Source: an uncultured Planctomycetota bacterium (GTDB taxonomy: Bacteria > Planctomycetota > Planctomycetia > Isosphaerales > Isosphaeraceae). Taken from it: a stretch of DNA of 64,000 nucleotides. Numbering within the stretch: the first letter of the stretch is position 1; each line of letters begins with the position of its first letter. Positions 32,539 through 63,689 of the stretch are shown in pieces. The stretch is from assembly GCA_963737655.1 (NCBI GenBank), contig CAVTTN010000002.1, forward strand, positions 4,032,001 to 4,096,000, given 5' to 3'. The notes under the pieces were generated by a model, which did no database searches, was not told the origin of the DNA, and worked only from the letters and a program-made list of their open reading frames with translations. The translations under genes were made by a program, and so were the position numbers.

Positions 32539-32983
32539 TGGCCGTCGCCCTCTGGAACGGCATCCTACGAAATAGGTCGCACCGCAGTCGATAGGTGTCG
32601 GCATGGCGGGCGTGCGCCAGCCAACTCCTGATCCGGGGGCGGATCACGTCGAGGTCGATTCGCCCGGCGGCGAATTCCCGCTGCATCCAGCGTAGGCGTC
32701 GGAGGAAGCGGTGGACGTTCTCCTTGACCAGGAGCCGGTGCCTGGGGAAGACCCGGTAGCCCAGGAAGCGGATGCCCTGATCGCACGGGAAGACGACGCT
32801 CTTGTCCCGGTGGATCTGGAGCCGCAAGCCCTCCAGGAATCGCTCGACCTCGGCCCGGACCTCGTGCAGATGCCCCTTGTCGTCGGCGAAGACGAGGAAG
32901 TCATCGACGTAGCGGACGTAATTCAGCCCGAGCTTGTCGGTGAGGAACTGGTCGAGCGGGTCGAGGTAGACGTTGGCGAAGAA
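32471..32983 (-). pseudogene. DGR reverse transcriptase, C-terminal remnant
   Basis: FFANVYLDPLDQF..YVRYVDDFLVF (YVDD at 32900-32911)..GIRFLGYRVF..SWLAHARHADTYRLR. The N-terminal part is missing. Confidence 0.92.
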
Positions 32984-32986
32984 CTA

Positions 32987-33168
32987 CCTCGGCGGTTCTT
33001 CGAGTACCTGGCCCGGATCAGCGTCTCCAGCAGCCTGTAGAGGTTCCGCTCGATCCGGTCGCCGAGCACGAAGCGGTGGTTGCGGGGGAACTTGCTCGTG
33101 TGGTGGCAGGACCAGAGGATCAGGTCGTAAGCCTTGGTGATGATGATCAATTCGTCGTTGTTTTTCAT
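32987..33168 (-). pseudogene. avd: DGR accessory variability determinant (Avd), truncated
   Basis: ELIIITKAYDLILW..SKFPRNHRFVLGDRIERNLYRLLETLIRARYSK; abuts RT sequence after about 60 codons. Confidence 0.88.
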
Positions 33169-33291
33169 GGACTTTCGCAGGTGAATCCGATATAATCAAG
33201 TGTAGGAGATGTCAATTGGCTTGAGATCGTCGCCGGAGACCCGATCACCGTGCCCGAGATCCAGCACCCGTTGCCGTCACAACCGATCCCT

Positions 33292-33346
33292 GACTGCCAT
33301 TCTGGCAGTCGTCCGCCATTTTTCGATGCCGTCCGGCTTCGCCGGA
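33292..33346 (-). promoter_or_regulatory. DGR cis-acting hairpins downstream of VR
   Basis: Minus strand TCCGGC-GAA-GCCGGA (33332-33346) and GACTGCCA-GAA-TGGCAGTC (33292-33310), 40 and 76 nt past the target stop. Confidence 0.78.
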
Positions 33347-33385
33347 ATCAAATAAATACATGAAAGAGTAAATACGTAAAAGAGA

Positions 33386-39300: not shown

Positions 39301-39406
39301 CGATCCGGTAGCGGCCGATCGTCGCCGGGTCGGTCAACACGACCTGCGGAGTCGTGGCCGAGGCGTGGGCCGTGACGGTCTCGGCTTCATCGAGTGGTTC
39401 GCCCAT
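33386..39406 (-). CDS. DGR target: Ser/Thr kinase - STAND-type NTPase - TM - BTRD1-like repeats - TPR - FGE-sulfatase/CLec domain (2006 aa)
   Basis: Kinase motifs GQGGFGRV, HRDVKPAN, DFG, YMSPEQ; NTPase motifs GPSGCGKSS, IVIDQFEQ, THDYL; GYRPV..YAAxW repeats; TPR and YDAAC; FGE motifs FSMGSP, EVTVEQY, YRLPTEAEWEYACRAG, DMLGN..EW, GFRPSRT. Confidence 0.93.
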   Translation of the reverse strand: MGEPLDEAETVTAHASATTPQVVLTDPATIGRYRIVRRLGQGGFGRVYLAHDDELDRPVAIKVPNAERIASPEDIEAYLAEARTVARLDHPSIVPVHDVGRTSDGLCYVVSKYIEGIDLAARPKGVALSHRDAADLVATVAEALHYAHTRGLVHRDVKPANILIDASGRAILADFGLALKDEDFGKGSGFAGTPSYMSPEQARGEGHRVDGRSDIFSLGVVYYELLTGKRPFRGDTRNELLDQIAITEARPPRQVVEAIPKEMERICLKALSKRATERYTTAMDLAEDLRVFLKTADPRGVSSEPVTPTHLSLPLDPTQAATPVPPTSGRTDSDSRPVKVVPKGLRSFDEHDADFFLELLPGARDRDGLPESLRFWKTRIEETDPDKTFKVGLIYGPSGCGKSSLVKAGLIPRLGKYVQTVYVEATAGDTEVRLLRGLRKACPDLPTDRNLADSLADLRRGRCLRSGQKILIVIDQFEQWLFANHGEINPELVGALRQCDGEHSQVLLMVREDFWGAANRLMRDLEVRSIVGENSALMDLFDPRHARKVLMAFGQAYGILPERASDLTSGQQAFLDQSVTGLAQGGKIIPVRLALFAEMVKAKPWTPANLREVGGTQGVGVTFLEETFSASTAPPEHRLHQKAAQAVLKTLLPATGTDIKGEMRSETELREASGYGDRPRDFDDLIRILDAELRLITPTDPQGSTEDSQAGKPIGGRYYQFTHDYLVPSLREWLTRKQRETRRGRAELRLAERSATWNARPENRQLPSLVEWATIRTMSQRKTWSGPQRSMMKRAGRIHALRASGLAALLALLTWGGVEGFGNMRASAIVEKLETAATTEAPAIIEQLGAYRRWAARPLDRLLASTEENGGPHLRASLASVALRPGDRKQAEHLEARLLAASPVEVPVIWGVLRTHDPGAEGRLRRVLEEDKADPEKRFRAACALAHSDAAQADGLWDAPAPFLTDRTLAAVIKNPADYTPLIESLRPIRRRLLAPLASVFRDKGRSETERNLATNVLADYAAEDPGVLADLLMDADPKAYSTLFPVVERKAAKTLPLLQAEIRKKATHPWNDPPIDRRWTEPDPTLVGRVEANGGLFAERFASCQTMPLDEFLTTAEALRRSGYRPVRFRPYDDGTGVRVAALWTRDGRGWRLASALAAETVRAQDEQNRSANYVPVDVAGYTATVGGGEPTDRYAALWSEKAGDDDARLYAGVSPDHLAAAQDLLKGQGLFPRTQHVMKAAGEKPTHSGVWGRSSTKDLPWNISWDSTEAALGQGVADQGQKSLIDLAVTGAGRMPSSRQRAELRLKAAEESLKAKPGDLNARFARATARFDLGETQASLDDLDAVVEKAPTFAAALQYRSIAHARLHHKDEAAADLARYQKGDGTPSSKLYLAVVVAAELSEGGGPAFDALEDALRSKPDDSALLYDAACAFALASRAVATRDAGRGRAYAERASTLLDRAIRHGYSDYGHILEDADLDPIRESPAFADATKGGHLDRRYAAVWVAEAGREAISVHGLDPAAHAERCRDLTVRGYRPVSVSVARTTPDGPLVAASVWHRPVVAEEAKDRLAERQARAAVALVRMGKAEAVWPLLRHSADPRLRSFIVNWLNPLGADPKVIAMEVGRIGPGTSPTPDQGQPKMDAILFHPETSMRRALILALGTYGSDGLSLGEREPRAARLLALYRDDPDAGIHGSAQWTLRQWGQGEKIKIADAELRKLGDEGRGDRRWYVNGQGQTFTLIEGPVEFSMGSPSTETDRDSDEVPHQVAIPRRFAIAATEVTVEQYLEFVRTNPDYGIAQSFLDRYSPDPSGPMVAVSWYGAAAYCNWLSEREGIPKGQWCYEPNGERVYGPGMTIPADVLRRTGYRLPTEAEWEYACRAGATTSRYYGRSLDLLGRYSWYNKNSGEHAWPGGGLLPSDLGGFDMLGNALEWTQGRFESYRVNAGKSAEDNINTSEHINENPRLLLGGSFPGRPSYVRSASRGRGAPSLRLTNVGFRPSRTYP
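33395..33517 (-). repeat. DGR variable repeat (VR)
   Basis: Ungapped 123-bp alignment to TR with 21 mismatches, 19 of them opposite TR adenines. Confidence 0.95.
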
Positions 39407-40893: not shown

Positions 40894-41313
40894 TCATTCC
40901 TCCATCGCCCTCGGGCCATGCATCACGTCCACGGCGACCGATTGCGGTGCCAATCCCAGGTAGGCCAGCCATCGTTCGCCAAGTCCCGGCTCCGAGTCGA
41001 TCAACTGTTCGGCCCGCCGCCCCTCGACTCCATGCTCTTCCAGCCTCGTCAGGGCCACAAGTCGCAAGGCTCGATCCACTCGTCTGGCCCCACCCTCGGC
41101 ATCTCCCATTCGGGCGAGGAGGGACCGGACCACGACCCGGAAGGCCCGATTGACCATCCCGGCCTCCGATCCAGGCCCACCGGGATGGGCGTCGATGCCG
41201 ACGCTGAACTCCTCCCGCAACGCCTTGGCGATGGCGATGATCGTCCGGCCCTCGTCGGCTTCCTCGAACCTGCCTTCCACCGGCCAGTCTTCACCGCCTC
41301 CCTTGCCGTCCAT
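40894..41313 (-). CDS. Hypothetical protein
   Basis: GGAGGA RBS before MDGKGG; preceded by a copy of the ACACCGCCCA + hairpin motif. Confidence 0.55.
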   Translation of the reverse strand: MDGKGGGEDWPVEGRFEEADEGRTIIAIAKALREEFSVGIDAHPGGPGSEAGMVNRAFRVVVRSLLARMGDAEGGARRVDRALRLVALTRLEEHGVEGRRAEQLIDSEPGLGERWLAYLGLAPQSVAVDVMHGPRAMEE

Positions 41314-41458
41314 ATCGAGTCCTCCCGGATCACCCATCATGGGCGACCCGAGCATCCCGATCGAGGCCCGCTTCAGGTCGCTAGACGACCTTGGGCGGTG
41401 TTTCTGCGTTGAACGGTGAAGGGAAGCGGGGTCCGTCAGCGAGGACCACTCTCGGCCA

Positions 41459-41695
41459 TCACGACTTCTGCGGCATGTCGGTGAACGGCTCGAATAGCGG
41501 AGCCAGGGACACCGCCAACGTCGTCGCAACCCGCTCGATGTTCACGAGGCTGAGGTTCTGCTCGACCCGTTCGATGGCACCGATATAGGTACGATGCAGG
41601 CCGCACAGGTCGGCGACCTCCTCCTGCGACCAGCCCCGCTCATTGCGACGCTGTCGGACCCTCGCCCCGAAGCGTTTTCGGATGTCGTTTCCCAT
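41459..41695 (-). CDS. XRE family HTH regulator (C-protein-like)
   Basis: FGARVRQRR..GWSQEEVADLCGLHRTYIGAIER..NLSLVNIERVA. Confidence 0.9.
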   Translation of the reverse strand: MGNDIRKRFGARVRQRRNERGWSQEEVADLCGLHRTYIGAIERVEQNLSLVNIERVATTLAVSLAPLFEPFTDMPQKS

Positions 41696-43076: not shown

Positions 43077-43284
43077 ACCGCCGAAGGCCGTTCGATCCGA
43101 CGAGGCTTGCGGTGATGACGATCAGTTTGGGTCCGAGCCGGAACTGGCCCTGTCGCTGAGCCGTAGGGGCAAGTAGAGGTCGCTCACCATCCCTTGTTAT
43201 TGAGGTGGCTGGACAGAATCGAGGACACCGCCCAGGTCGGTCATGTTGTTCCGACGGCGATGAAGACCCAGCGAGGAGAGACTC

Positions 43285-44145
43285 GTGGCACAAGAGTGGT
43301 TCTACGCACGAGAAGGCCAGAAGACCGGCCCCGTCTCAGCGAAGCTACTGCGGGAACTCGCAGTCTCGGCCGATCTCCGGCCCGACGATCTCGTGTGGTT
43401 GGAGGGCATGCCCGAGTGCAGGAAGGCGGGGACCCTCCAGGGGCTGTTCCCTGTGGCTAGCGCCGTCGAGCGACCGAAATCGCCTCCGCTCCCGACCTAC
43501 TCGCCATCGCTGCCGCAGGTCGCCACGTCGACCGTCGCCGGGTTGGACAGGTCCGAACCAGCCTCCAAGACGAGGGGGCGCTGGAACGGCGTCCTGGGAC
43601 TCGTGTCGATCCTGGTCGTGTGCGGCATGATCCAGCGAGGATACGTCTGGTTGTCTGGGCCGAAGGATAACTCCCAGGACGGGGCCGAGGAGAAGCTCGG
43701 CTCACCGGAGCGACAGGCAGGCCCGAATCTGAGCCAATCGTCCCAATCCGGCCCACCCACCGGCTCCAGCACGCCCCAGCAGGGCCAGTCGGGCAGCCTC
43801 GACACCGAAGCCGCACGAAACGCCCGGTTGTTCGTTACCCAACTCCCGTCGAGCGCAGCTAATTCACGTTTTGCGGGGACGGCGATGCAGGTCAGGGGCG
43901 AATGGGATGAAGCAGGAGGCACAGACCCATATTACGTTTACGTGAGACATCCATTGGAGCCAATAAGTAAAACTGTTATTTCCGTGGATCGAACATTTCC
44001 AAGCGATGAACAAGACGAGAGGTGGCGCAATCCTTACGGTGTCGGGGAAGTACAGAAGCTCCGAGAAGCTCCCACAAATCTGGATTGTTCAATTGGAAGA
44101 ATGCATGCTCGTCGATCTAAAAGGTTCAAAGATCTCGACTTCTAA
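43285..44145 (+). CDS. GYF_2 (DUF4339) domain membrane protein
   Basis: EWFYAREGQKTGPVS..LRPDDLVWLEGM, followed by a TM segment. The 3' end may be degenerate. Confidence 0.75.
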   Translation: MAQEWFYAREGQKTGPVSAKLLRELAVSADLRPDDLVWLEGMPECRKAGTLQGLFPVASAVERPKSPPLPTYSPSLPQVATSTVAGLDRSEPASKTRGRWNGVLGLVSILVVCGMIQRGYVWLSGPKDNSQDGAEEKLGSPERQAGPNLSQSSQSGPPTGSSTPQQGQSGSLDTEAARNARLFVTQLPSSAANSRFAGTAMQVRGEWDEAGGTDPYYVYVRHPLEPISKTVISVDRTFPSDEQDERWRNPYGVGEVQKLREAPTNLDCSIGRMHARRSKRFKDLDF

Positions 44146-52517: not shown

Positions 52518-53801
52518 GGGCCTGGGATGAAATAAGCTTTACAACCGACCGTGGCCCTCGATAATCGGGTCATGGACACCGATCAGGAATTGGAACGCAA
52601 GTTTGTCACACTCTTCCCCTGCCTCGACGAGAGGCAGCGTCGCCTCTTCGCTGCCGCAGAGGCCCGAGCCTTCGGCTACGGCGGGATCAGCCGCGTTAGC
52701 CGGGCCTGCGGCCTCTCTCGCGTCACGATCCAGGGGGCGTTGGAGGAACTGGATTGCCCGAGTCCGCACCCCGGCCGAGTTCGCCGTCCCGGTGGCGGCC
52801 GCAAGAAGCTCCGCGACTCCTCGCCACAACTGCTCAAGGCCTTGGAGGAGTTGATCGCCCCCGAGACCCGCGGCGATCCGATGTCCCCATTGCGATGGAC
52901 CTGCAAGAGCACCCGCCAGTTGTCCGAGGCCCTGCAGAAGCGGGGTCTGACCGCGAGCTATCACGTCGTCGGGCAGATGCTCCATCATTTGGGCTATCGC
53001 CTGCAAGCCCCCGCCAAGACTCTCGAAGGCAAGCGGCATCCCGACCGCGACGCCCAGTTCCGCGACATCAACGCGACCAGCGGAAGCTATATCGCCGCCG
53101 GGCAACCGGTCATCTCGGTGGATACGAAGAAGAAGGAGTTGGTCGGCCAGTACGCCAACGGGGGCCGAGGGTGGCAGCCGGCCGGCGAGCCGGAGCGGGT
53201 CCACGTCCACGACTTCCCGGACCCGGGCGTCGGCAAGGCCATCCCCTACGGCGTGTACGACGTGGGCTGGGATCTCGGCTGGGTCAATGTCGGATGCGAT
53301 CACGACACGGCGGCCTTCGCCGTCGAGAGCATCCGCCAGTGGTGGCGATCGATGGGCGAGCAGTCGTACCCGGAGGCCGGCCGCCTGCTGATCTGTGCCG
53401 ACGGCGGGGGGAGCAACGGCTATCGGCTGCGGTTGTGGAAGGTGGAACTCCAGCGTTGGGCCGATGAGACGGGCTTGGAGGTGACGGTCTGCCACCTGCC
53501 GCCGGGGACCAGCAAGTGGAACAAGATCGAGCACCGCCTCTTCTCGCATATCACGATGAACTGGCGTGGACGGCCGTTGGTAAGCCATCGAGTGGTCGTG
53601 GAACTGATCGCGGCGACCAAGACGGCGACCGGCTTGGAGGTCGAGGCTCGGCTCGATTCGGGGAGCTATCCGACCAAGGTGAAGGTCTCGAAGGAGCAGA
53701 TGGAGCAAGTCCGATTGAAGCCTCATGAGTTTCACGGCGAGTGGAACTACACCATCGAGCCGGGGGACTCTGAGTTGTAAACTTTATTTCGTCCCAGGCC
53801 C
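52518..53801 (+). mobile_element. ISAzo13 family insertion sequence, apparently intact
   Basis: 28-bp terminal inverted repeats (52518-52545 and 53774-53801, 3 mismatches) and a TAA target duplication on both sides. Confidence 0.93.
52572..53780 (+). CDS. ISAzo13 family transposase
   Basis: Motifs RGDPMSPLRWTCKSTRQL, HPDRDAQF, SVDTKKKELVG, ADGGGSNG, PPGTSKWNKIEHRLFS and FHGEWNYTI. Confidence 0.95.
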   Translation: MDTDQELERKFVTLFPCLDERQRRLFAAAEARAFGYGGISRVSRACGLSRVTIQGALEELDCPSPHPGRVRRPGGGRKKLRDSSPQLLKALEELIAPETRGDPMSPLRWTCKSTRQLSEALQKRGLTASYHVVGQMLHHLGYRLQAPAKTLEGKRHPDRDAQFRDINATSGSYIAAGQPVISVDTKKKELVGQYANGGRGWQPAGEPERVHVHDFPDPGVGKAIPYGVYDVGWDLGWVNVGCDHDTAAFAVESIRQWWRSMGEQSYPEAGRLLICADGGGSNGYRLRLWKVELQRWADETGLEVTVCHLPPGTSKWNKIEHRLFSHITMNWRGRPLVSHRVVVELIAATKTATGLEVEARLDSGSYPTKVKVSKEQMEQVRLKPHEFHGEWNYTIEPGDSEL

Positions 53802-54088
53802 TAACAATAAGACAAACAGCGGAGTGATCCATCCGCCGGGGGCAGGGAACCAAGTCTTACACTTTTCGCCGGAAATACCTGGATTGATAGCTTTGAAACC
53901 GGCTCGTCCTCACAACCGCTTGGGCGGTGTCCGAGCAATCCAACACCGGAATCTCCGGTGTTGGCTTTCGATGAGAGCCGAGGATCGGGAGTGTCGTCGT
54001 TCGGGACGATGATCCGTGACAACTTTTGTAACCTCGGAGACGGTCCGGGTGGGCGTCCCTTCCCACCCGATCGGCCGTTGGTCTGGCC

Positions 54089-54336
54089 CTATTTGTGGGG
54101 CTGGAAGCCGTAGTAGATCCTCGGCGAGTGGGTGAAGCAGAGCGAGCCCTTCACCCGGTCGCTCTTCCTCACGGCGACGACGAGGGGCGCGGCGAACCCG
54201 ATCACCTCGAAGTCCTCCTGAAGCTCGTCCGTCGTCCAGACCTGGCCTGCTTCGCCTCCAGGTACTCACGGCTGCCGGGCTGGGCGTTGACCTCGACGAG
54301 CATCTGGCGACGGGCGTCCTCGGTTGCGTTGGGCAT
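54089..54336 (-). CDS. Small hypothetical protein (frameshift near 54250)
   Basis: GGAGG RBS; MPNATEDARRQMLVEVN..LEAK joins GQVWTTDELQEDFEVIGFAAPLVV..KGSLCFTHSPRIYYGF if one base is restored. Confidence 0.65.
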
Positions 54337-54423
54337 GACGATCCTCCGTTGTTCTGGGGCTGTGATCTCAACGTCGAATTGGGCGGTGTCCCGTGATTGG
54401 CTCCACGGGACACCGGGAGGGGC

Positions 54424-54732
54424 TCAGTATTCAGCCGGGGTGAGGATGCAGGTCGAGGCCCGGCGACCGTCATCCCCCACGGCCTCGGTGATCACCCAGA
54501 GCTTGACGCCCCGAGTCGTCTTGTAGGCCGACAGGAGCCTGCTCCCGTCGATCAGGGCCTCGTCGTTGAGCGACTTGTCCTCGGAATCCAGGTCGCCCCA
54601 ATCCCCCTCCAGGTGGCGATCCAGGAAGTCGGAAGGCTGCTGACCGCTGGCCTCCATCGCCTCGATCGCTCCGGGTGTGGCCACGACCTGGCCGGGGAGG
54701 AACTTGGGGCGGGAAGTCTCGATCGCACTCAT
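54424..54732 (-). CDS. Conserved plasmid/ICE-associated small protein
   Basis: F.PGQVVATPGA..FLDRH..GDWGDL..ED...N..AL..GSRLLSAY..KLWVITEA..TCIL.P.EY, a family I recognise from mobile elements. Confidence 0.8.
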   Translation of the reverse strand: MSAIETSRPKFLPGQVVATPGAIEAMEASGQQPSDFLDRHLEGDWGDLDSEDKSLNDEALIDGSRLLSAYKTTRGVKLWVITEAVGDDGRRASTCILTPAEY

Positions 54733-54832
54733 CGATTCGCTCCGATACGGGACGAGGGTTTGGTCACAACCTGTTGGGCGGTGTTCTCCGAGCCGGTCGA
54801 TTGACCGGCTCGGACCCATGCCGTTGACGACC

Positions 54833-55267
54833 TCACCAGTCTTCCGGCTCGTCAGGCTCCGTCATGCCGTGCCAGGAATCGGCCTCGTCCTCGGCGTCGA
54901 TCTCCGACCAGTAGTCTGCCAGTTCGATGGCCTCGTTGCGGGCACGGGCGTCGTCGCATCCGATCAGCAACTCGCCCCGGAATAGCATGCCGTCGTCGCC
55001 CAGGGCGTAGCCGACGAGGAACCGGCCCCGAGGGAGCCGGATCATCAGGGCAACCGAGCCGTCGTGGTATCGCCGGACCACCTCCGACCGGCACAGGAGC
55101 TTGACCTTGCCGCCCCACGACAGCAGGGCCGTCCTGCCCTCGTGCCTGCCGGTGTAGGCCGTGATGTTATGCCCGTAGACCGATGCCCCGAAGGCGGTGA
55201 AGACCCGGCCCTGGTGGTCAATGACCCCGATCTCCCCCTGGCCCCGTCGCACACAAAAAGTCGTCAT
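54833..55267 (-). CDS. Hypothetical protein with acidic C-terminus
   Basis: GGGAGG RBS; one unit of the motif-delimited array. Confidence 0.7.
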   Translation of the reverse strand: MTTFCVRRGQGEIGVIDHQGRVFTAFGASVYGHNITAYTGRHEGRTALLSWGGKVKLLCRSEVVRRYHDGSVALMIRLPRGRFLVGYALGDDGMLFRGELLIGCDDARARNEAIELADYWSEIDAEDEADSWHGMTEPDEPEDW

Positions 55268-55339
55268 CGCTTGCCTCCCGTCGAGTGAGTTTGGTCGTCT
55301 CAACGGGTTCTTGGGCGGTGTTCACGGACCGGGGTCCAT

Positions 55340-56295
55340 TCATTCGGCGGACTTATAACGAGCCAGGACACGGAAGAAGCTCGCCCGGCTCTTCTTCGTG
55401 AGCCTCCTCCAATAGTTCTGCTGATCACCCACCGAATCGGGATGGCGATCGAGGGCTTGCTGGAGGCAGCGGAGATCCTTGTCCCTGGAGTCGATCCGGC
55501 GGGACGTGTCCGGCTTCCTCCCGAGAGTTTGAAGTAGGCTCTGGACGAGCGGACGCCAGTCGAGGCCCTCGGATCGGGCATACTGGACCTTGCGAAATGA
55601 CGGCTCCAGCAGCCTCATCGAGATCAGGCGGTCGTCGCCGTTCACCTGGATGTAGTCCACGACCTCCAGGCAGTCGTCGGGGCTCAGGGAGTGATATCCG
55701 CCCCGTGCGATCGACCTCATGAGTGCGAGGACTTCCTCCTGGCTGGCGTCCAACTCGAAGATGTCGCATCGGCTCAACACGGCGTTGAAGGCCGCATTCT
55801 TGCGGGGATCACATTGGCGGCGAAGATGATCCGGCTCTCGAACACGAAGGATGGCGGGAGGTCATCCAACCGGCTCGAACCGTAGCAGACGACCCGAGGG
55901 TCGCCCCAGAGGGCCGAGCGCAGGAGGCCGACGTGGGCCATCGAGCCGAACATGGAATCCACATCATCGAAGAACACGACCTCTTCCCGGCGATGGCGAT
56001 ATAGTGCCGCATAGAGGGCGAGGGGCGTGACGTGGCTGTTCACGAGGATCGGCGAAATCTCCCCCTCGGCGAGCGTCTTGAGGATCGTCCTCGACTTGCC
56101 CAGCCCCCCCTGCGACCCGTAGCAGAAGACGGCCGTAATGAGCCCTCGGGCCACGAGCCGGACATGGTGGCCGAGGAGGGCCTGCCGCTCCTCCAGGGCC
56201 GTCCTGGGCGGCTCGTCCGCCATCCCCGGCAGGACCAGGGACAGGTCGCCGGTTCGACGCTCCAGGTTCTCGCCAGTCGTGTTCGCCGATCGCAT
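55340..56295 (-). CDS. P-loop (AAA+-like) ATPase with C-terminal HTH-like tail, frameshift near 55805
   Basis: YGSQGGLGKS, VFFDDVD and RIIFAAN; restoring one C in a CCCC run gives PRKNAAFNAVLSRC and joins ORF 55340-55780. Confidence 0.72.
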
Positions 56296-56397
56296 CTGCG
56301 ACCCCCGTTTACAAATATTGGAAATCCCCGAGCCCTTGGGCGGTGTTCCCTGGACGGCCCCGGAACCGATTCGATTTCGGGGCCGTCCCTCACTGGT

Positions 56398-56979
56398 TCA
56401 GGCGACCGATTGGATAGCCGCCGCCTCGCCGGTCCTGCGATCGATGAGGCAGCACGACTCGCCAGGTTCGCTATCGAGGAACGCCCTGGCCTGGTCGAGA
56501 TGCGTGAACCCTCGGTAAAGGCGGCGAGTGGCCGTCTGGCCGTCGATCGTGGCCTCGCCCTTCCAGGAGACCTGATAGCAGGGGATACGAGCCTCGACCT
56601 TCCGCACCCACTCCCGGCAATCCCGCTCGAAGTCGCGGTCGTCCTCACGACCGGCCCCGTAAACGATATCGAGCCGGACCCGGCCGAGGACGTTGTAGGA
56701 CTCGGCAGCGACCTCCAGGGCGTAATCGGCGTGGTAGACGTAGAGGCTGGGGGCGCACTTGAGCCTGCGGCTGCGGAGGTACTGGCTCTGCTCGGTGCCG
56801 AACATGTGCCCGTCCCGCCACATCCTCTTCTTGAGCAGGTCGAAGCCCCGCCCGTTGAGGATCTCCCAGACGTTGTAGAGCAGGCGGGACTCGGCCCCGT
56901 ACCAGCCCGGAGCCGACCACGACTTCCTGCTCCGGTTGGGCCGGAACCTGGGGTCGCCCGGCTCCCGATAGACGATCAT
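56398..56979 (-). CDS. Hypothetical protein
   Basis: GGGAGG RBS; aromatic-rich, protein-like ORF in the array. Confidence 0.7.
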   Translation of the reverse strand: MIVYREPGDPRFRPNRSRKSWSAPGWYGAESRLLYNVWEILNGRGFDLLKKRMWRDGHMFGTEQSQYLRSRRLKCAPSLYVYHADYALEVAAESYNVLGRVRLDIVYGAGREDDRDFERDCREWVRKVEARIPCYQVSWKGEATIDGQTATRRLYRGFTHLDQARAFLDSEPGESCCLIDRRTGEAAAIQSVA

Positions 56980-57105
56980 GACTTCCTCCCGAGGGGTGTT
57001 TCTCACATCCCCATGGGCGGTGTTTTCGAGATGCGGCCTATCGAGGGAGCAGGGCTGACCTGAAGGGAGAGGATGGAGCGGCGGACATGCCGCCCCATCC
57101 TCGTC

Positions 57106-57516
57106 TCACTCGTCTTCCGACTCCGTGAACTTCCGAGGATCGACCCCCTCGTCGGGAAGGCCGTCGCCGTGATATGTCATAGGGAACGGCAGGTCGGTCC
57201 GCTCCTGGCCGTGGATCATGAGGTGATCGAGGTCGATGACCCTTCCCGACCCGTCGTGGTGGCGATCGTCCTCGGGATAATCGCCGAGGTCGGAGTCGGG
57301 GACGTGGATCCGATGGCCGTAGGTCTTGTCGTCGCTGAGTTCGTCGATGGCGTCCGAAACCGTGCCGGCCTCGACGACCAGGAAGATCGGGGAATAGCTC
57401 CCGCCGAGTTCGATCAGCCACGCCTTGCCGAACCACCCACCGGGATACAACACGGGGATGTCGGTCAGGTCATGATCGTGCATGCGGAACCGGGCTGTGA
57501 TTGTCTTCTCGCTCAT
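57106..57516 (-). CDS. Acidic hypothetical protein
   Basis: Starts MSEKTIT just after a motif copy; Asp/Glu-rich. Confidence 0.72.
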   Translation of the reverse strand: MSEKTITARFRMHDHDLTDIPVLYPGGWFGKAWLIELGGSYSPIFLVVEAGTVSDAIDELSDDKTYGHRIHVPDSDLGDYPEDDRHHDGSGRVIDLDHLMIHGQERTDLPFPMTYHGDGLPDEGVDPRKFTESEDE

Positions 57517-57710
57517 GACATCGCTCCCTGGGGTGTCTCGATCACCCCCCCCTGGGCGGTGTCCGGCGAAATCGGGGACTTGCACCGGGCGAAGTAGGTT
57601 CCCATGCCGGGGACGAGGCAAACGTCGTGGTCCTCGGCATCGCCGCCGCACTCGGAGCAGGTCTCGAACTCGAACAGGTTTTCCAGCCACTCCTCGGGCG
57701 TCTCGCTCAT
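57513..57710 (-). CDS. Small Cys-rich (CxxC) hypothetical protein
   Basis: MSETPEEWLENLFEFETCSECGGDAEDH..C; its 3' end reads through a motif copy (DTAQGG). Confidence 0.65.
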   Translation of the reverse strand: MSETPEEWLENLFEFETCSECGGDAEDHDVCLVPGMGTYFARCKSPISPDTAQGGVIETPQGAMS

Positions 57711-57764
57711 TTTCGCCACTCCGAAGGGGGTGTTGTTCACACCCCCTTGGGCGGTGTGCGGCCC

Positions 57765-58487
57765 TCATCCGGCGATGGGCAGGAGTTGCTGGATCGAGTC
57801 GTAGCGAGGGATATCGGAGCAGGCGTTCTCGACGAACTGGAAGGCCGCATGATTCTCGACCTCGGAGGACGCCTGCTCCGGCGTCCAGTCGTGGCCCAGC
57901 ATCACGACGAGGGCGTACAGCTTGCGGAGGGTCGGATAGCCCATCGTGGGGTAGGTCCGATCCCAATCGAGCCAGGCATCCGTGCCGTCCCTGTAGGGAT
58001 TGCCCCGGAAGACCTCATGCCAGTAGTCCCGCCTCTCGTCCTTCGAGAAGTCGAACCCCTCGAACTTGAGGATGCCGAGGTAGCCGCCCTAGCGGCCCAT
58101 CCAGGTGTATGCGACCTCCACCTTGGTGCCGTCATACAGGTGGTCGTAGCAGTCCGAATCGGTGACGAGGTGGCAGGCGTCCTCCACACCCCACTCGAAC
58201 AGCTTGTCCCGGACCGCTTCGTACTTGGCCTCGTCCTTCCCCAGCCACTCGGGGTTGTCGAGCCAGGTCTCGCCGTCGCCGTAATAGCCGCCGCTGCGGT
58301 ACACCTCGACGAGATGCTCGAAGTCCAGATCGACGCCGTAGCACTTGACGTTGAAGGCGAAGTAGCTCCGGCCGTTGTGCCCGTAGGCCGAGTCATACCC
58401 GCCGACCGAGGCGAGGTAGGCGGCGATGTCGTTTCGTGACCGGAGCGGCGTCCGGTAGTGGGCGGGTTTCTTCGGTCGGTGATGCAT
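57765..58487 (-). pseudogene. Hypothetical protein with in-frame TAG at 58089-58091
   Basis: ..YTWMGR*GGYLGILKFEGFDF.. continues open in the same frame to the TGA at 57765. Confidence 0.7.
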
Positions 58488-58554
58488 GCTGGGGCTCCGA
58501 AGGGGGTGTTCTTCGCACCCCCTTGGGCGGTGTCCGGCCCTCGGCCCTGCGGGG

Positions 58555-59463
58555 TCAGCCCGTCAACCGCTGCTCGGCGGGCTCGGCGAAGGCCCGGTCC
58601 CAATACCTGTCCAGGTTCTCATCCGACCTCTTGCCCGCCAGGTAGTCGAGCAGGTAGGAGGCGAGCTTGTGGCCGGGGTCGGCGGGTCCGGGCTTGCCCT
58701 CCAGGAAGGCCCTCAGTTGCTTGAGGTTGCGGGGGACAGGCCCTCCCGTCCCCGTCGCCTCGTGGACCTCCTGACGCTTCTCCTTGACCTTGGCGGCGGT
58801 GATCTTGCCGCCCCCCTCGGCGACGGAATTGAACACGCCGATCCGCTTCTCAGGCGGGAGCTTGACCAGTTCCAGGGCGGCGGCGACCGGCGTCTTCCCG
58901 TGGGCCACGCTCTCCTGGATCACGGCGGGGAGCATCACGAGGTTGAGCAGATTGGCGATCCACGCCTCCGACCGTCTGAGGCGTCCCGCCACCTGCTTCA
59001 GCGTCAGGCCGTAGTCTTCGGTCAGCGAGCGGACGGCGTGGGCCAACTGGATCGGCCTGGGATCTTCCCGCTGGATGTTCTCGCTGAGATTGACGAGTGC
59101 CGCCTCGGCGTCACTGAGGCGGCTGACGACATATTTGACCTTGAAATCGGGGCACGTCCCCGACTCGATCAGCCAGAGTGCGGCCCGCATGCGGCGGAAA
59201 CCACCCACAACTTCCAGGCGGCGGTCGGGCATGGGTCGGGTGAGGATCGGGTTCAACTGCCCCGAAGTGCCCTCCTCGGCGTCCCCCTGGCCCTTCTTGG
59301 GCATCATGTCCCTGGCGAGTTCCATCAGGGCCTCATCGACGGGCGGTTCTTCACCGTTGCGGGAGAGGTTCTTGCGCCAGTCCACGATCAGGGCGGTCGG
59401 ATCGACCATGAAAACGTCGCTGCGGCTGACCTTGTGGTCGCCCGTCTCTGCGGTGAAGGCCAT
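58555..59463 (-). CDS. ParB/Srx family protein with HTH
   Basis: GQLNPIL, VVGGFRRMRA, NLSENIQRED, YGLTLKQVAGRLRRSEAWIANLLNL..LP. Confidence 0.88.
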   Translation of the reverse strand: MAFTAETGDHKVSRSDVFMVDPTALIVDWRKNLSRNGEEPPVDEALMELARDMMPKKGQGDAEEGTSGQLNPILTRPMPDRRLEVVGGFRRMRAALWLIESGTCPDFKVKYVVSRLSDAEAALVNLSENIQREDPRPIQLAHAVRSLTEDYGLTLKQVAGRLRRSEAWIANLLNLVMLPAVIQESVAHGKTPVAAALELVKLPPEKRIGVFNSVAEGGGKITAAKVKEKRQEVHEATGTGGPVPRNLKQLRAFLEGKPGPADPGHKLASYLLDYLAGKRSDENLDRYWDRAFAEPAEQRLTG

Positions 59464-59526
59464 CGTCGTCTCCTCTGAGTAAAGTTGTCGGGGGTGTTGT
59501 TCACACCCCCTTGGGCGGTGTCTCGC

Positions 59527-60222
59527 TCAATCCAGCGGTTCGCATTCGTCGGCATCGACGAGGACGGCCCGACCCGAGTAGGACCACGGACCGATCGCCT
59601 CCGACTCGTCGATGGCGACGATGACGGCCTCCTCGGCGTTGCTTTCCTCTCCGGACGGGCAGCACCGGATGACCTTGCCGGTGCCCTTGAGCCGGTCACC
59701 GCTCGGCATCCTCGCCTCGACTCGCACGGGGCCGCCGGGCCGGAAGGCGTCATCGTCGTCGGGATCGTCGTCCGGTTTGCGGGCCTCGGACTCGACCACC
59801 TCGTAAGCCAGTTGGGCGAACTCGGTGAATTCGGAATGGAAGGGCGAAGATTCGATGTCGATACCGAGCTTGGCCTCGGCGATCTCAATGTTCTCGTCGT
59901 AGTCGTCGGCGAGTCCGACCCCGTGGCCCCGGCATCCCATCAGGATGGAGTAGAGGGCGTCGGCCCACTCGTCCTCATCGATCTCCATCAGGGTGAACAT
60001 CTCGCCGACGCTTCGGCCCCAGGCTCGGGCCAGGTCGGCGACGTAGGGCCGGATCAATTCGAGGAGCTTGTCCGAATCCTGGTCCGGGCACACATCCGTG
60101 ATTTCGGTCCCGGCTGCGAAGGAGAAGCCCGCCTCCTCCCGTGCCGACGCCCACTCGGAAGCAAAGAAGCTCTGTGCGGCCTCGGCCAGCACGTCGTCGG
60201 ACAGTTCGATCGTCTCGCTCAT
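59527..60222 (-). CDS. Highly acidic hypothetical protein
   Basis: GGAGG RBS; very Asp/Glu-rich; GHGVG motif. Confidence 0.75.
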   Translation of the reverse strand: MSETIELSDDVLAEAAQSFFASEWASAREEAGFSFAAGTEITDVCPDQDSDKLLELIRPYVADLARAWGRSVGEMFTLMEIDEDEWADALYSILMGCRGHGVGLADDYDENIEIAEAKLGIDIESSPFHSEFTEFAQLAYEVVESEARKPDDDPDDDDAFRPGGPVRVEARMPSGDRLKGTGKVIRCCPSGEESNAEEAVIVAIDESEAIGPWSYSGRAVLVDADECEPLD

Positions 60223-60273
60223 GGTCACCTCCAGGGGGATGTTGTTCGCATCCCCCTGGGCGGTGTCCCCGGA

Positions 60274-60879
60274 TCACTCCTCGATCGGCGTGAATCCGAG
60301 ACCGACGAAGGCGTCCCGCATGTCGCTTTCTTCCGGGTATCCTTCCCGATCGTCCCGGTTCTCGACGGCCCGCTGGTTGTGTTCCCAGAACCACGAGAAG
60401 ACGGCGGATTCCCAGCCTTCGGGAAGTTCGTACTCTCGCTTCAATCGCCATGCAGCCTCGCCAATGTTCTCGATCGTGGCGTCATGCTCCTTCCGGGAAG
60501 ACGCCTCTTCGTCGAGGATCGGGTCGTCGGCCATTCGTTCGGCGAGTCCGTGGTAGGTCTTGAACGCTTCGGTGATCTCGCCGTCCCTGAAGACCCGGAT
60601 TGGGACGCCATCGACATGGCCGACCGCCCAATGCCCGTGACTCTCGAAAACCACGTCGGGGTCGTCGTCCTCGCTGAAGGAACTCATAACTCCGGCGATG
60701 GTCTCGGCGTTGCTCGTGTCGAGGAGGTCGCTGTCCCGGTAATGCGTGTAGAGGACGGCCCACGAGTCGGGGTCGTCGATATCTCTGGCTCGTTCCCAAT
60801 AGAAGCAATCGAACCCCCGCCAGTTCCCCGCCGCTCCCTTTGCGGCGTCCTCGACCGTCATCTCGCCAACCATGTACAT
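60274..60879 (-). CDS. Acidic hypothetical protein
   Basis: GAGG RBS; RDSDLLD.SN..GHWAVG..PILDEE. Confidence 0.75.
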   Translation of the reverse strand: MYMVGEMTVEDAAKGAAGNWRGFDCFYWERARDIDDPDSWAVLYTHYRDSDLLDTSNAETIAGVMSSFSEDDDPDVVFESHGHWAVGHVDGVPIRVFRDGEITEAFKTYHGLAERMADDPILDEEASSRKEHDATIENIGEAAWRLKREYELPEGWESAVFSWFWEHNQRAVENRDDREGYPEESDMRDAFVGLGFTPIEE

Positions 60880-61008
60880 GGTCACCTCGCGTTGGGTCGT
60901 GTTTTCACATCCCCTTGGGCGGTGTCCGTTGGTCGGACGGTGGACGCCGGTTGAATTGCCTGCTATGGTCGCCGCTTCGCCACTCCCCGCCCCCTGCGGA
61001 GCCCGACG

Positions 61009-61662
61009 ATGGAGATGATGGCCGAGCGGCTCGACCGCCTCGAACGAAGCTGCCGCCGCTGGAGGTGGGCGGGGATTGTCTTCGCCCTCCTGGTCGGCAC
61101 CCCGATCGCACTACTCTTCGTCGCCTTGCTGATGAGCGACGGGATCAACGAGACGAAGGGCCTCATCGTCCGGGACAAGGACGGGATGGCTCGCATCGAT
61201 TTCGGGACGTATCCGAGCGGCTCGCCCAGGATGGGACTCCGGGGCCGGGACGGGAAAGTCCGTCTTGAGTTGAGCCTGAACGATGCGGATTCCCCGACGA
61301 TCAGGCTCAACGACAAGGACGGGAAGGGTCGCCTCTCGATGAACATCGATGATGACGGGCCGACCGTGAGGTTGAACGACAAGGCCGAGGTTTCCCGGCT
61401 ATTGCTGTCCGTCGCCGAGGACGACTCGCCCGTCATCGGCCTGAAGGGCGGGAACGGAGACTTCCATCTCTGGATGCGTGCCGACCCCGATGGCACGTCG
61501 AGGATCGATATCCTGGACAAGAACGGGAAGCATCGCCTGGCGATCGCACAAGGCAAGGACGGCGAACCGGCGATCGGGCTGATGGACATGGACGAGAAGC
61601 TCCGGTTCGGGATCAGTCTCGACAAGGACGGCAAGCCGGTAATCACACCGTCACGGCCCTGA
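61009..61662 (+). CDS. Membrane-anchored beta-repeat protein
   Basis: RLDRLER followed by a TM helix, then about six ~22-aa repeats of the form L.DKDGK.R..L....DG.P. Confidence 0.75.
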   Translation: MEMMAERLDRLERSCRRWRWAGIVFALLVGTPIALLFVALLMSDGINETKGLIVRDKDGMARIDFGTYPSGSPRMGLRGRDGKVRLELSLNDADSPTIRLNDKDGKGRLSMNIDDDGPTVRLNDKAEVSRLLLSVAEDDSPVIGLKGGNGDFHLWMRADPDGTSRIDILDKNGKHRLAIAQGKDGEPAIGLMDMDEKLRFGISLDKDGKPVITPSRP

Positions 61663-61753
61663 GATCCATGTCCTCGATAACCTGGGCGGTGTCCGTTGGT
61701 CATCTCGACGGAAGGCCGGGGCGGCATCGATGCCGCCCCGGCCTCGCTATCGA

Positions 61754-62699
61754 TCATCGGGCCAGTGCGGGCTCCGCCCCCTCCTCCGCTTCGGTCACTG
61801 CGGTTCGGCTGAAGGACAGGAGGTAGTCGGCAGCCTTCGACGCTTGCGACGAGGCGGTGAAGATGAATCTCGGGTCGTCCTTCAACGCCCGGAGCCAATT
61901 TGCCAAGTAAGAAACGTGGTTGCCCAAATTCTCCGAGGCCGGGACGCCCAAATCTCGCCAGGTAGCAGGCCCCGACTTCGGCGACGAGTTCCCCCATCGC
62001 ATACGTGTGGCCCGCTTCCTTGCGGGACCAGTTCAACCGAGCGGGATGCTCCGTGGCGTGGATCAACTCGTGGAAGATCGTCTCGCAATACTCGTCGGCT
62101 TCGGTGAACGTGGCCTTCGGGGGAACCTGGATGTGGTCGTGGAGCGGGCTGTAGTATGCCCGACCACCTCCATACCGGATGCTGATCCCCGTGGCGGCGA
62201 TGGCCTCCTCGGCGGGTTCGTAGTCGATGACGGGAGGGTCGTTGACCGCCCCGCACCGACCGGCCCGGAGGTGATCGAGGTGACTTCCCTCGACCTGATC
62301 GACGTTGAACACGGTATACGCCTTCATGACGAAGAACCGATCCGCCTTATCCTCGCCGGTGTCGCTCTTGGTCACCTTCGTGATCGGGCTCCAGAAGACG
62401 ACCTGGCAGCCCCACTGGCCCTCGGGCACACCCTCGGGCCGTCGCATGACCTTGCCTCCGAGGCCCTTCCACTGATTGAACGTGGCCCACCACCTCGACG
62501 AGAGGTTATGTCGTGCCGACGACATCTCCAACAGGATCGGATTGATGCCCCTGTAGGGCTTCCTGGAGACGATGTTGGCGGGGAACCCGGCGTCCTTGTC
62601 GGCCCGCCACGGGCGTCTCCAGGGCGGGATGTTGCCGGATTCCAGGGCGACGACGATCTGGTTGGTGATCGACTGTCGAAGTTGCTGCTGGCTTGCCAT
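61754..62699 (-). CDS. ardC: ArdC-like antirestriction protein (ssDNA-binding DUF1738 + zincin domain), frameshift near 61955
   Basis: ITNQIV..LE.G..PW.RPW, PYRGIN, WATFNQW..LGG.V, YTVFNVDQ, AYYSP..DHI..P, FHELIHAT, YA..ELVAE, then SYL..WL..LK.D.RFIF.A.SQA.KAADY in the second frame. Confidence 0.9.
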
Positions 62700-63095
62700 G
62701 TCCGCTCTCCGCTCGGGCCGTGGTTGGTTAACCTGACGACCCGTTGGGCGGTGTTCATGGCTGCGGTAGCGGCGACACGGCGATATCGCACGAGAGTTGA
62801 GACGAGGAGCGATCGTCCCGTACGATCGGCAGGTTCTCCGTCGTCTCAACGGCGGCTTGAGACCGGCAAGCTGAGCCCAGGATCGGATGGAAATTATTGA
62901 CCGAAATGACTTAGGGGCGGGCCGTTTCGAGGGATCGGCGTCGGCAAAGTCTCAGTCTCAGATGAGACCGGGACCGGGCCGAGGATTTGCAATTTTTGTA
63001 AACGGCCCGATGTCCCAGGATCGAGCCCCGGACACCGCCCAAAGGATCGAAGCGGGAGGTCGATCGTCGGGAAGAGAGACCGCAGGAGGATTCGA

Positions 63096-63689
63096 TCAGT
63101 CCGTCCCGGTCGCCGCCCGGTCGGCCGCCTCGACGGAGTAGGTCGGGTCGGCCTCGTCCCACGAAACGTCCCCGGACGGGCCGTAGATGGCCGGGACGTG
63201 GCGGCCCGCCAGCCGCAGCCAGGTCTGGACCTGGGTCCGGTGGTGGCAGGTGTGGAGCATACGCCTCCAGAACGTCCAGATCCGCTGCCGCTTCAGGCCG
63301 CCGAAGAAGGGCCGCTCCTCCAGCCACCATGCGGAGGTCGCCGAGGCCAGTTGCGGCAGCCTGCCCCTCGCCAGGGCCACGTACCTGTCGTGGTACTCCC
63401 GGAGAGTGGGCCGCTCCCCGTCCGGCAACAACCCTGGAACGGGAGGCTCCTCTGTGCCGACGAATTGGGCGAAGAAGCGGCGCTCGGAGAGGATCTGGTG
63501 GGTCAGGATCGCCCGGATCGTGTTGGTCCGCTCGTGGGGCCTGTAGTCGAGGAGGTCGTCGGGCACGGCCCGCCACAGGCTCGCCGTCTTGTTGGTCTCG
63601 CTGGCGTAGGTCAGGACGAGGTGCAGGAAGTGTGGATCACGTGCCGTGCGGATTTCCTCGTCGGGGATGGCGATCAACTCGTATCGCAT
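63096..63689 (-). CDS. DinB family protein
   Basis: LDYRPH..TIRAILTHQILSERRFF..HTCHHRTQ..LRLAG..VPAIYGPS. Confidence 0.85.
   Translation of the reverse strand: MRYELIAIPDEEIRTARDPHFLHLVLTYASETNKTASLWRAVPDDLLDYRPHERTNTIRAILTHQILSERRFFAQFVGTEEPPVPGLLPDGERPTLREYHDRYVALARGRLPQLASATSAWWLEERPFFGGLKRQRIWTFWRRMLHTCHHRTQVQTWLRLAGRHVPAIYGPSGDVSWDEADPTYSVEAADRAATGTD

Follow-up and report, generated by a model that had tools for sequence, protein, structure and literature searches.

Results

A 10-mer heads the genes of an array led by ardC

The window analysed here is a stretch of 64,000 nucleotides from the genome of an uncultured Planctomycetota bacterium of the family Isosphaeraceae (assembly GCA_963737655.1, contig CAVTTN010000002.1, positions 4,032,001 to 4,096,000). 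It carries an array of mostly small genes, led by ardC and all read on the minus strand, in which a 10-mer, ACACCGCCCA, recurs before nearly every start codon as part of a two-box unit described below. A preliminary description of this DNA had listed 14 co-oriented copies of the 10-mer, and all of them are present at those coordinates on the minus strand, spanning 53921–62754, as is the inverted copy at 63032 on the plus strand; two further copies, at 41392 (minus) and 43225 (plus), were absent from that list. The 17 exact copies in the window compare with a mean of 0.20 (SD 0.43, maximum 2) in 100 dinucleotide-preserving shuffles, in keeping with the earlier estimate of well under one chance copy per window, and an exact-match count agrees that the first 41 kb hold none. 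In 12 of the 14 co-oriented copies the end of the motif lies 34–48 nt from an ATG, which is preceded by a GGAG or GAGG Shine–Dalgarno sequence (SD). The other two, at 61683 and 53921, are orphans that adjoin a rearrangement or an insertion sequence (IS) element. Copy placement and hairpin folding both support the earlier view of the region as a chain of motif, hairpin, ribosome-binding site and open reading frame (ORF). With the 10-mer named box 1, the array reads as follows.

62697–62754, minus: unit 1, with box 1 at 62745–62754, a leader and the ardC ATG, 45 nt from motif end to ATG
61757–62699, minus: ardC, with Pfam matches to ArdcN and a zincin peptidase; frameshifted near residue 250, the C-terminal part lying in another frame
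61683–61692, minus: orphan box 1, about 70 nt past the true ardC stop, with no minus-strand gene following
61012–61662, plus: ORF of 216 aa, inserted right after the orphan box 1 at 61683
60877–60925, minus: unit with box 1 at 60916, a weak hairpin and the ATG of an acidic 201-aa protein
60220–60266, minus: unit with box 1 at 60257, a 10-bp hairpin (z score −7.3) and the ATG of an acidic 231-aa protein
59461–59521, minus: unit with box 1 at 59512 and a hairpin, fused to a native ParB-type leader; ATG of the ParB-like gene
58555–59463, minus: ParB-like gene (Pfam)
58485–58533, minus: unit with box 1 at 58524, a hairpin and the ATG of a 132-aa protein
57708–57757, minus: unit with box 1 at 57748 and the ATG of a Cys-rich 65-aa protein; hairpin identical to that of the 59512 unit
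57514–57562, minus: unit with box 1 at 57553, inside the 3' end of the 65-aa ORF; the ATG of the 136-aa protein overlaps the stop of that ORF
56977–57023, minus: unit with box 1 at 57014, a hairpin and the ATG of a basic 193-aa protein
56293–56346, minus: unit with box 1 at 56337, an AT-rich 21-nt element in place of the hairpin, and the ATG of a P-loop-like 173-aa protein
55265–55321, minus: unit with box 1 at 55312, a long hairpin with the SD in its 3' arm, and the ATG of a 144-aa protein
54730–54784, minus: unit with box 1 at 54775, a strong hairpin upstream (not downstream) of box 1, and the ATG of a 102-aa protein
54334–54389, minus: unit with box 1 at 54380 and the ATG of a gene cut to 44 aa
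53921–53930, minus: orphan last box 1 at the array end, against the IS element
52551–53780, plus: ISAZ013-family DDE transposase (E 2.7e-142), bordering the array

The genome that contains the window (7.63 Mb, 68.7% G+C) has 34 exact copies of ACACCGCCCA. Half of them are the 17 of the window; of the rest, one is at window coordinate 76483 (plus strand), 12.5 kb beyond the window, and 16 are scattered. Since base composition alone would give about 33 copies per genome, the 10-mer outside the island stands at or below chance. A Chi-like, uptake-sequence-like or translocase-guiding polar word was discarded, as the host genome has no excess of ACACCGCCCA and the copies keep to start codons. The preliminary description had also raised a possible match to an Rfam family, and none was found at E ≤ 1 on either strand of 40000–64000.

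Anatomy of the unit

The 10-mer, which the preliminary description took for the element itself, proved instead to be one form, local and homogenised, of a bipartite unit shared across the family, and its exact count in 40 relatives is at background level only. The unit consists of box 1, GACACC-nCC-G/C, and box 2, GTGA-nn-AAC, 12 nt downstream, followed by the SD and the ATG; a G/C-rich hairpin with its tip at box 2 is usually present. When units are aligned on ACACC, the second box falls at G17 T18 G19 A20 n n A23 A24 C25. In an alignment of 23 units, which has its own numbering, ACACC, C11, G21, G23 and A24 are invariant, and the loop and closing bases T22, G23, A24, A27 and A28 are conserved. 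The hairpin is built of a G-run/C-run stem and a 5-nt GAnnA loop closed by T-A and then G-C. The stems are near-perfect, free to vary in sequence and without conserved bulges, so that the conserved bases sit at the tip of the hairpin and not at its base.

The hairpin is not an obligate part. Among 124 loosely defined units, 54 have a strong hairpin in the leader and 14 a strong hairpin upstream of box 1, and the units of the ParB genes in eight loci have box 1 and no hairpin. Where there is no hairpin (36 units), G occupies position 17 in 72% of cases, A occupies position 20 in 64%, and C or T occupies position 16 in 87%. The retention of these bases makes box 2 a sequence signal and more than a loop. 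Dyad symmetry between box 1 and box 2, or a layout of the Xer/dif type, was judged by eye and dismissed, the right arm not mirroring box 1. Pairing of box 1 with 16S rRNA was likewise rejected: the duplex energy of −18.4, obtained with a stretch only presumed to be 16S, lies within the shuffled range (mean −15.6, minimum −23.3).

The stems covary. In an alignment of 81 hits, which was fitted to a covariance model and is hence biased towards the structure, 118 cells carry double-sided changes against 49.6 ± 5.5 in shuffles (0 of 500 reach 118), and 70.9% of cells are paired, compared with 59.0% in shuffles and 44–51% when the partner is slid. The unfitted alignment of 23 sequences gives the same picture, with 21 double-sided changes against 11.6 in shuffles (0 of 500).

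Such covariation is what would be seen if the unit worked in RNA, as a leader in which single-stranded box 1 and the hairpin form a protein-binding site on the mRNA before every cistron. As a nut-like boxA/boxB site or as a translational operator, it would license each cistron for read-through, for translation, or for processing and stability. Several features lean the same way. The GAnnA loop closed by T-A and then G-C has the form of boxB, and the unit as a whole resembles a lambdoid nut site as generally known, in form only, in that a linear box is followed by a short hairpin with a purine-rich 5-nt loop and U-A closing. In 10 of 91 candidate units (11 sources) the upstream ORF ends on the TGA of TGACACC, several units sit inside the 3' end of the preceding ORF, and in several, for example the orthologues of the 55312 unit, the SD is paired by the hairpin or by box 1. 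Canonical-looking, AT-rich promoter-like boxes are found only upstream of the first gene of the array, ardC, and no sigma-70-like sites lie inside it. Against these points, the distance between box 1 and box 2 is fixed even where the hairpin is missing, as in the ParB-gene units, and units also precede divergent genes and two genes outside the array, p137 and a GYF-domain gene (see below). Folding energy has no sense-strand bias, being lower on the sense strand in 35 units and on the antisense strand in 41 (p = 0.52), and no arginine-rich or other RNA-binding candidate was identified. There are also differences from nut sites: box 1 does not seem to resemble boxA as generally known, units stand before every gene and not once per operon, and no N-like protein was found, family searches having given no hit for any small array protein. 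We regard an RNA-level leader as less likely than not, yet as the main and a strong rival of the reading proposed below.

Hairpin selection without strand bias would also suit signals in single-stranded DNA, that is, priming sites or miniature single-strand promoters on incoming DNA, through which anti-defence genes would be made double-stranded or transcribed early. The hairpins of plasmid single-strand promoters are far longer than those of the unit, however, and the fixed distance to the ATG would be left unexplained. Moreover, the surroundings of the four annotated arrays, out to about 10 kb, showed no conjugation genes, whether for a relaxase, a coupling protein or type IV secretion. Co-oriented arrays led by ArdC do resemble plasmid leading regions as presented in the available part of PMC11541004; even so, we hold this explanation to be highly improbable.

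Related arrays and the distribution of the unit

A search with the ParB-like protein recovered ten related planctomycete loci (77–86% identity), and the planctomycete setting proposed earlier holds for these relatives, which are planctomycete islands. Exact ACACCGCCCA is rare in them, with six matches in 4 of the 10 loci. Eight of the ten have an over-represented word of their own that shares the GACACC core, such as TGACACCACC (11 copies in L009), TGACACCGCC (nine in L002) and GACACCGGCC (seven in L004); a further array, in the near-complete genome G058, has 13 copies of GACACCGCCG. GACACC is strongly biased to one strand in L007 (27 to 1) and L009 (28 to 3) and lacks such bias in L001 (5/5) and L005 (2/9). 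Upstream of the ArdC/ParB island of L001, which has no GACACC units, lie four to five iteron-like tandem repeats of 34–35 bp (L001:3900–4050).

A covariance model of the unit gave 81 hits at E ≤ 1 in the 306,907 bases of the window and loci (14 sources), 75 of them on the sense strand, and in the genome of the window all seven hits at E ≤ 0.01 fall inside the array. Across the same family, hits at E ≤ 0.001 occur in 16 of 121 genomes and 10 of 53 genera, and genomes with more than one hit mostly have them clustered on one contig and one strand; none was found in 150 sampled genomes from elsewhere in the phylum. The bipartite pattern [GA]ACACC-N12-GTGA has 46 hits in the genome of the window, in coding-like sequence, and spacings N6, N9, N15 and N18 give 37–43. 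A genome-wide regulon was therefore rejected, the excess at N12 over N10, N11, N13 and N14 (3–7 hits) being codon periodicity. The unit marks a patchily distributed island and is not a host signal; the 10-mer count, the pattern scan and the covariance model all bear out the earlier expectation of an island-specific motif. The arrays lie in chromosomal islands, and the ParB-like protein has best matches below 31% identity in a plasmid collection and no relative in a collection of viral contigs. Over 100 ORFs in 11 arrays are preceded by units. They are mostly small, many are strongly acidic, they stand beside ArdC and almost none belongs to a known family; frameshifts in several loci from metagenome-assembled genomes limit gene calls.

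Three units of the window share a near-identical leader of 32–40 nt, as would a functionless repeat spread and homogenised by gene conversion. The unit is nevertheless conserved position by position over 11 arrays that differ elsewhere by 20–35% in DNA, its stems carry compensatory changes and it is strictly placed before start codons, so that a repeat without function is scarcely credible.

Reshuffling of cassettes at the units

The content and order of the cassettes, each a unit with its ORF, are mosaic across 13 arrays. The gene for the 136-aa protein, for example, follows the ParB-like gene in the window and precedes it in seven loci. In the window, the ParB cassette is flanked on both sides by 32-nt copies of box 1 plus hairpin, the second of which is the 58524 unit. 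G003, a genome of the same genus, has instead a single junction between the 231-aa and 132-aa genes, made up of the left flank of the pre-ParB junction of the window and the right flank of its post-ParB junction. Further indels and one tandem duplication of a cassette also end at box 1, although alignment segments are partly expected to start at a conserved box. The units are joints of cassette rearrangement, which gives substance to the shuffling role suggested in the preliminary description.

A tyrosine recombinase of 244 aa, Xer-like and headed by its own unit, is encoded inside four of the 13 arrays examined, in G058, L002, L003 and, truncated, L008; three copies are located as follows.

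L020:9140–9871 (G058): Xer-like tyrosine recombinase, inside the array
L002:16675–17403: Xer-like tyrosine recombinase, inside the array
L003:15094–15825: Xer-like tyrosine recombinase, inside the array

With small co-oriented ORFs parted by hairpins that are conserved in structure and variable in sequence, between short conserved flanks, and with permutations, indels and a duplication that end at units, box 1 and the hairpin could form the attachment site of an integron-like cassette exchange run by this recombinase. In integron attC sites, as generally defined, the hairpin is imperfect and has extrahelical bases, and the conserved inverse core sites lie at its base. The units are like them in their co-oriented, individually moving cassettes and in their structure-conserved hairpins. 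They differ in that the invariant bases lie in box 1 and the loop and not at the base of the stem, in that the unit lies 5' to its gene in a fixed relation to the start codon, which points to expression, and in the lack of an integron-type integrase, the Xer-like recombinase sitting inside the array. That protein was not found in the island of the window's own genome and stays below every NCBIfam cut-off: it scores 130 bits against 220 for the XerA/integron model, and 74.6 bits against 265 for the integron integrase model, over residues 54–147 only. Ordinary homologous recombination between repeats of 10–32 nt accounts for the joints. We consider an attachment site very unlikely. A fuller version, in which the unit would be expression signal and attachment site at once and modules of box 1, hairpin and ORF would be excised, captured and reordered by the Xer-like recombinase of the array, is a long shot. 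If true, it would make the islands an integron-like, rapidly re-sortable anti-defence arsenal, invented independently in one planctomycete family.

Units outside the array and a candidate regulator

The leader before ardC is non-coding and about 300 nt long. At 10–12 kb from the array, the copies at 41392 and 43225 stand beside an XRE-family gene and the GYF-domain gene.

63032–63041, plus: inverted box 1 in the non-coding leader upstream of ardC
62790–63005, minus: leader region, with an AT-rich element at 62984–63004, GAGACT direct repeats at 62947–62960 and inverted GTCTCA copies
43225–43234, plus: box 1 copy, followed after 50 nt by a GYF_2-domain gene with a GTG start (43285–44145)
41459–41695, minus: XRE-family helix-turn-helix protein of 78 aa in the distal module of the island, a candidate regulator
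41392–41401, minus: box 1 copy, 57 nt past the XRE gene and 87 nt before the p137 ATG
40894–41304, minus: p137 (137 aa), partner gene of XRE, without a family match

An inverted box 1 is also found upstream of ardC in L002, L003, L006 and L008, with a divergent gene following it in the first two. Leader repeats of the GAGAC type are shared with L002, L003 and L008. Arrays in L003, L004, L006 and G058 end with the module of XRE gene, unit and p137, which in L006 lies 2.4 kb beyond the locus, and the XRE gene is conserved as a distal module in at least five islands (the window, L003, L004, L006/L013 and G058); a search with the XRE protein of the window did not find it in the genomes of L002 and L009. 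Its recognition helix is identical in four islands that differ in the 3' half of box 1. Since the helix is unchanged despite these differences, the XRE protein is less likely to read the variable half of box 1 than to read a conserved site, of which the GAGAC repeats may be an example. The GAGACT/GTCTCA repeats of the ardC leader (62796–62960) look operator-like, with the conserved XRE protein as their candidate binder.

These data bear on a strict analogue of the stoperators of mycobacteriophages, in which an island repressor bound to box 1 would block the elongating RNA polymerase at each junction and silence the resident array, the hairpins being unrelated features of the mRNA. A short asymmetric site in many copies and one orientation, placed in the promoter region and in the short gaps between genes, agrees with such a role, as do the island-specific variants of box 1 and a conserved repressor-type XRE gene. 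Constancy of the recognition helix and the genomes in which XRE was not found speak against it, and a roadblock needs neither box 2 nor a fixed 34–48 nt to the ATG. We judge it quite unlikely.

A proposed role in the transcription of single genes

We tentatively read the unit as a per-gene transcription-control cassette recognised by a factor specific to the element, a reading to which we give a probability of about 0.4. We infer that it acts on DNA and on transcription, and offer the direction of control and the identity of the reader as candidates. Units head first genes too, namely ardC, the divergent gene of L002 and L003 (inverted), p137 and the GYF gene. Together with the fixed distance to the ATG and the spacing of box 2 in hairpin-less units, this argues for a signal of linear geometry that governs the downstream gene. 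A specific reader is suggested because each island has a fairly uniform box 1 that differs from those of other islands, and because there is no host regulon.

Under this per-gene reading, box 1 and box 2 would form a bipartite signal on duplex DNA. The candidate reader would be a protein specific to the island family, whether sigma-like, an activator, or a repressor of an asymmetric site of the stoperator type, and the signal would set the transcription of the gene that starts 34–48 nt after the 10-mer. The stem-loop that overlaps box 2, or occasionally lies upstream of box 1, would be transcribed and may attenuate or insulate transcription arriving from upstream, give stability as a 5' stem-loop, or do both. 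Because every gene is preceded by the same kind of unit, the units would also provide portable homology for inserting, losing, duplicating and permuting cassettes of unit plus ORF.

Several observations weigh against this proposal. Units lack a TAnnnT at the right distance and the copies of the window lack the TTG of a −35 element, for which reasons a host sigma-A promoter was rejected; a simple sigma-70 scan found no minus-strand site in 53500–63400; and no sigma factor or other plausible reader was identified. Constancy of the XRE helix argues against that protein as the reader of the 3' half of box 1. The covariation of the stems reflects selection at the single-strand level, which a site on duplex DNA could not by itself explain, and stop codons fused to box 1, with promoter-like boxes only before the first gene, fit one long transcript. 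The ParB-like protein and ArdC were set aside as readers, since both also occur in L001 and L005 (ParB 78–81% identity), which have no GACACC units. A terminator scan found 7 sites where 5.1 were expected.

Host promoters upstream of tRNA genes follow TTGACA-N17-TAnnnT, and the units of most islands begin with a TGACA-like sequence. On C2 of the genome, near 1941128, the host promoter before a tRNA-Asp gene has the sequence CTTGACACCGCCCGCC, in which a G+C-rich spacer comes after the −35 hexamer. This sequence comes close to the 10-mer of the window, showing that a −35 element can give rise to such a word.

Comparison with known systems

We found no description of the unit itself; repeated regulatory sequences before ardC and establishment genes are already known elsewhere, and the CUP repeats of IncN plasmids are a comparable case. 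The literature on planctomycete promoters and on planctomycetes with ArdC gave no account of the unit, nor did a planctomycete plasmidome preprint, by term search.

The PeSLs of T4-type phages and the stoperators appear closest to the unit in logic, PeSLs being the closest of all. PeSLs (promoter-early stem-loops) combine a promoter with a stem-loop, often polyG/polyC, immediately upstream of ORFans (available parts of PMC2839356 and PMC4122927). They occupy hyperplastic regions, where their stem-loop comes before or after the promoter boxes, between them or over them (PMC2839356), and recombination at PeSLs yields indels, replacements and gene shuffling (PMC2839356; PMC4122927). The unit is similar in standing directly before small ORFs of unrecognised family in variable regions, in its G-run/C-run stems with the hairpin downstream or, rarely, upstream of box 1, and in the joints at units, as at the G003 junction that lacks the ParB cassette. 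It is not a member of the PeSL family, because the second element of the host promoter is absent from it; PeSLs have the host sigma-70 consensus, whereas the unit does not. The unit is found in planctomycete chromosomal islands, and PeSLs are found in phage genomes.

Stoperators of cluster A mycobacteriophages are asymmetric 13-mers, more than 20 in number, in promoters and short intergenic spaces and oriented with transcription, according to the available part of PMC9283540. Compared by description, they share with the unit the many oriented asymmetric copies and a specificity that diverges between related elements. The site of the unit is shorter (10–12 nt), it has a second box and a hairpin at a fixed distance and a fixed distance to the start codon, and no repressor with two DNA-binding domains was identified for it.

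Plasmids of the pLS20 family have a regulon defined by repeated regulatory sequences, which lie before ardC and other establishment operons (PMC8708921; PMC6294495, each in part). EGeRS1 is a structured region of 420–750 bp before five operons, and EGeRS2 consists of dual TTATCCC heptamers bound by a ribbon-helix-helix repressor at four promoters (PMC8708921; PMC6294495). A repeated, conserved sequence upstream of ardC and other genes is common to both systems, but the unit spans about 30–45 nt, differs in sequence and stands before every single gene.

Read in this way, the unit would tag a regulon of dark-matter genes, and scanning for it would be a direct route to candidate anti-defence and establishment genes in a phylum whose mobile-element biology is nearly unexplored. 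It would also extend beyond the phages and plasmids of model bacteria a design principle in which one short per-gene regulatory cassette doubles as a recombination joint, and, as a compact and portable expression signal, it would be useful for planctomycete genetics.

Array proteins and neighbouring genes

Apart from ArdC, the ParB-like protein, XRE and one GIY-YIG protein, the array proteins have no Pfam match. Seven of the ten unnamed proteins encoded on the minus strand between ardC and the IS element (54427–60879, ParB-like excluded) have isoelectric points of 4.1–5.4, the charge pattern of DNA-mimic anti-restriction proteins. The peptidase domain of ArdC, whose homologues have 312–317 aa, is cut by the frameshift, which is either a sequencing error or the mark of a pseudogene. 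The gene after the 54380 unit (54202–54336, minus, and downstream) is frameshifted as well, since two frames both match 83-aa homologues. The plus-strand ORF of 216 aa has high third-position G+C and internal repeats of the DKDGK type; it has no Pfam match and no second copy in the genome or in related arrays.

Two near-identical AT-rich elements of 21 nt lie 6.6 kb apart in opposite orientation, at 56307–56327 (minus) in the unit of the P-loop gene and at 62984–63004 (plus) in the ardC leader, and similar words occur in L006, L007, L009 and L010. They could be a centromere-like site of the ParB-like protein, or a promoter.

The neighbours of the arrays comprise IS elements, a Gabija-like OLD/UvrD pair, methylase and helicase genes, and ordinary chromosomal genes. 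Directly upstream of ardC in L004 (L004:2839–6448) are genes for an OLD-family ATPase/TOPRIM protein and a UvrD-type helicase, the Gabija-like pair, and for an SNF2 helicase. In the window, positions 32926–39406 (minus) encode a kinase/STAND NTPase protein of 2006 aa with an FGE-sulfatase-type domain at its end, followed by a bAvd-like gene, a pairing typical of the targets of diversity-generating retroelements.

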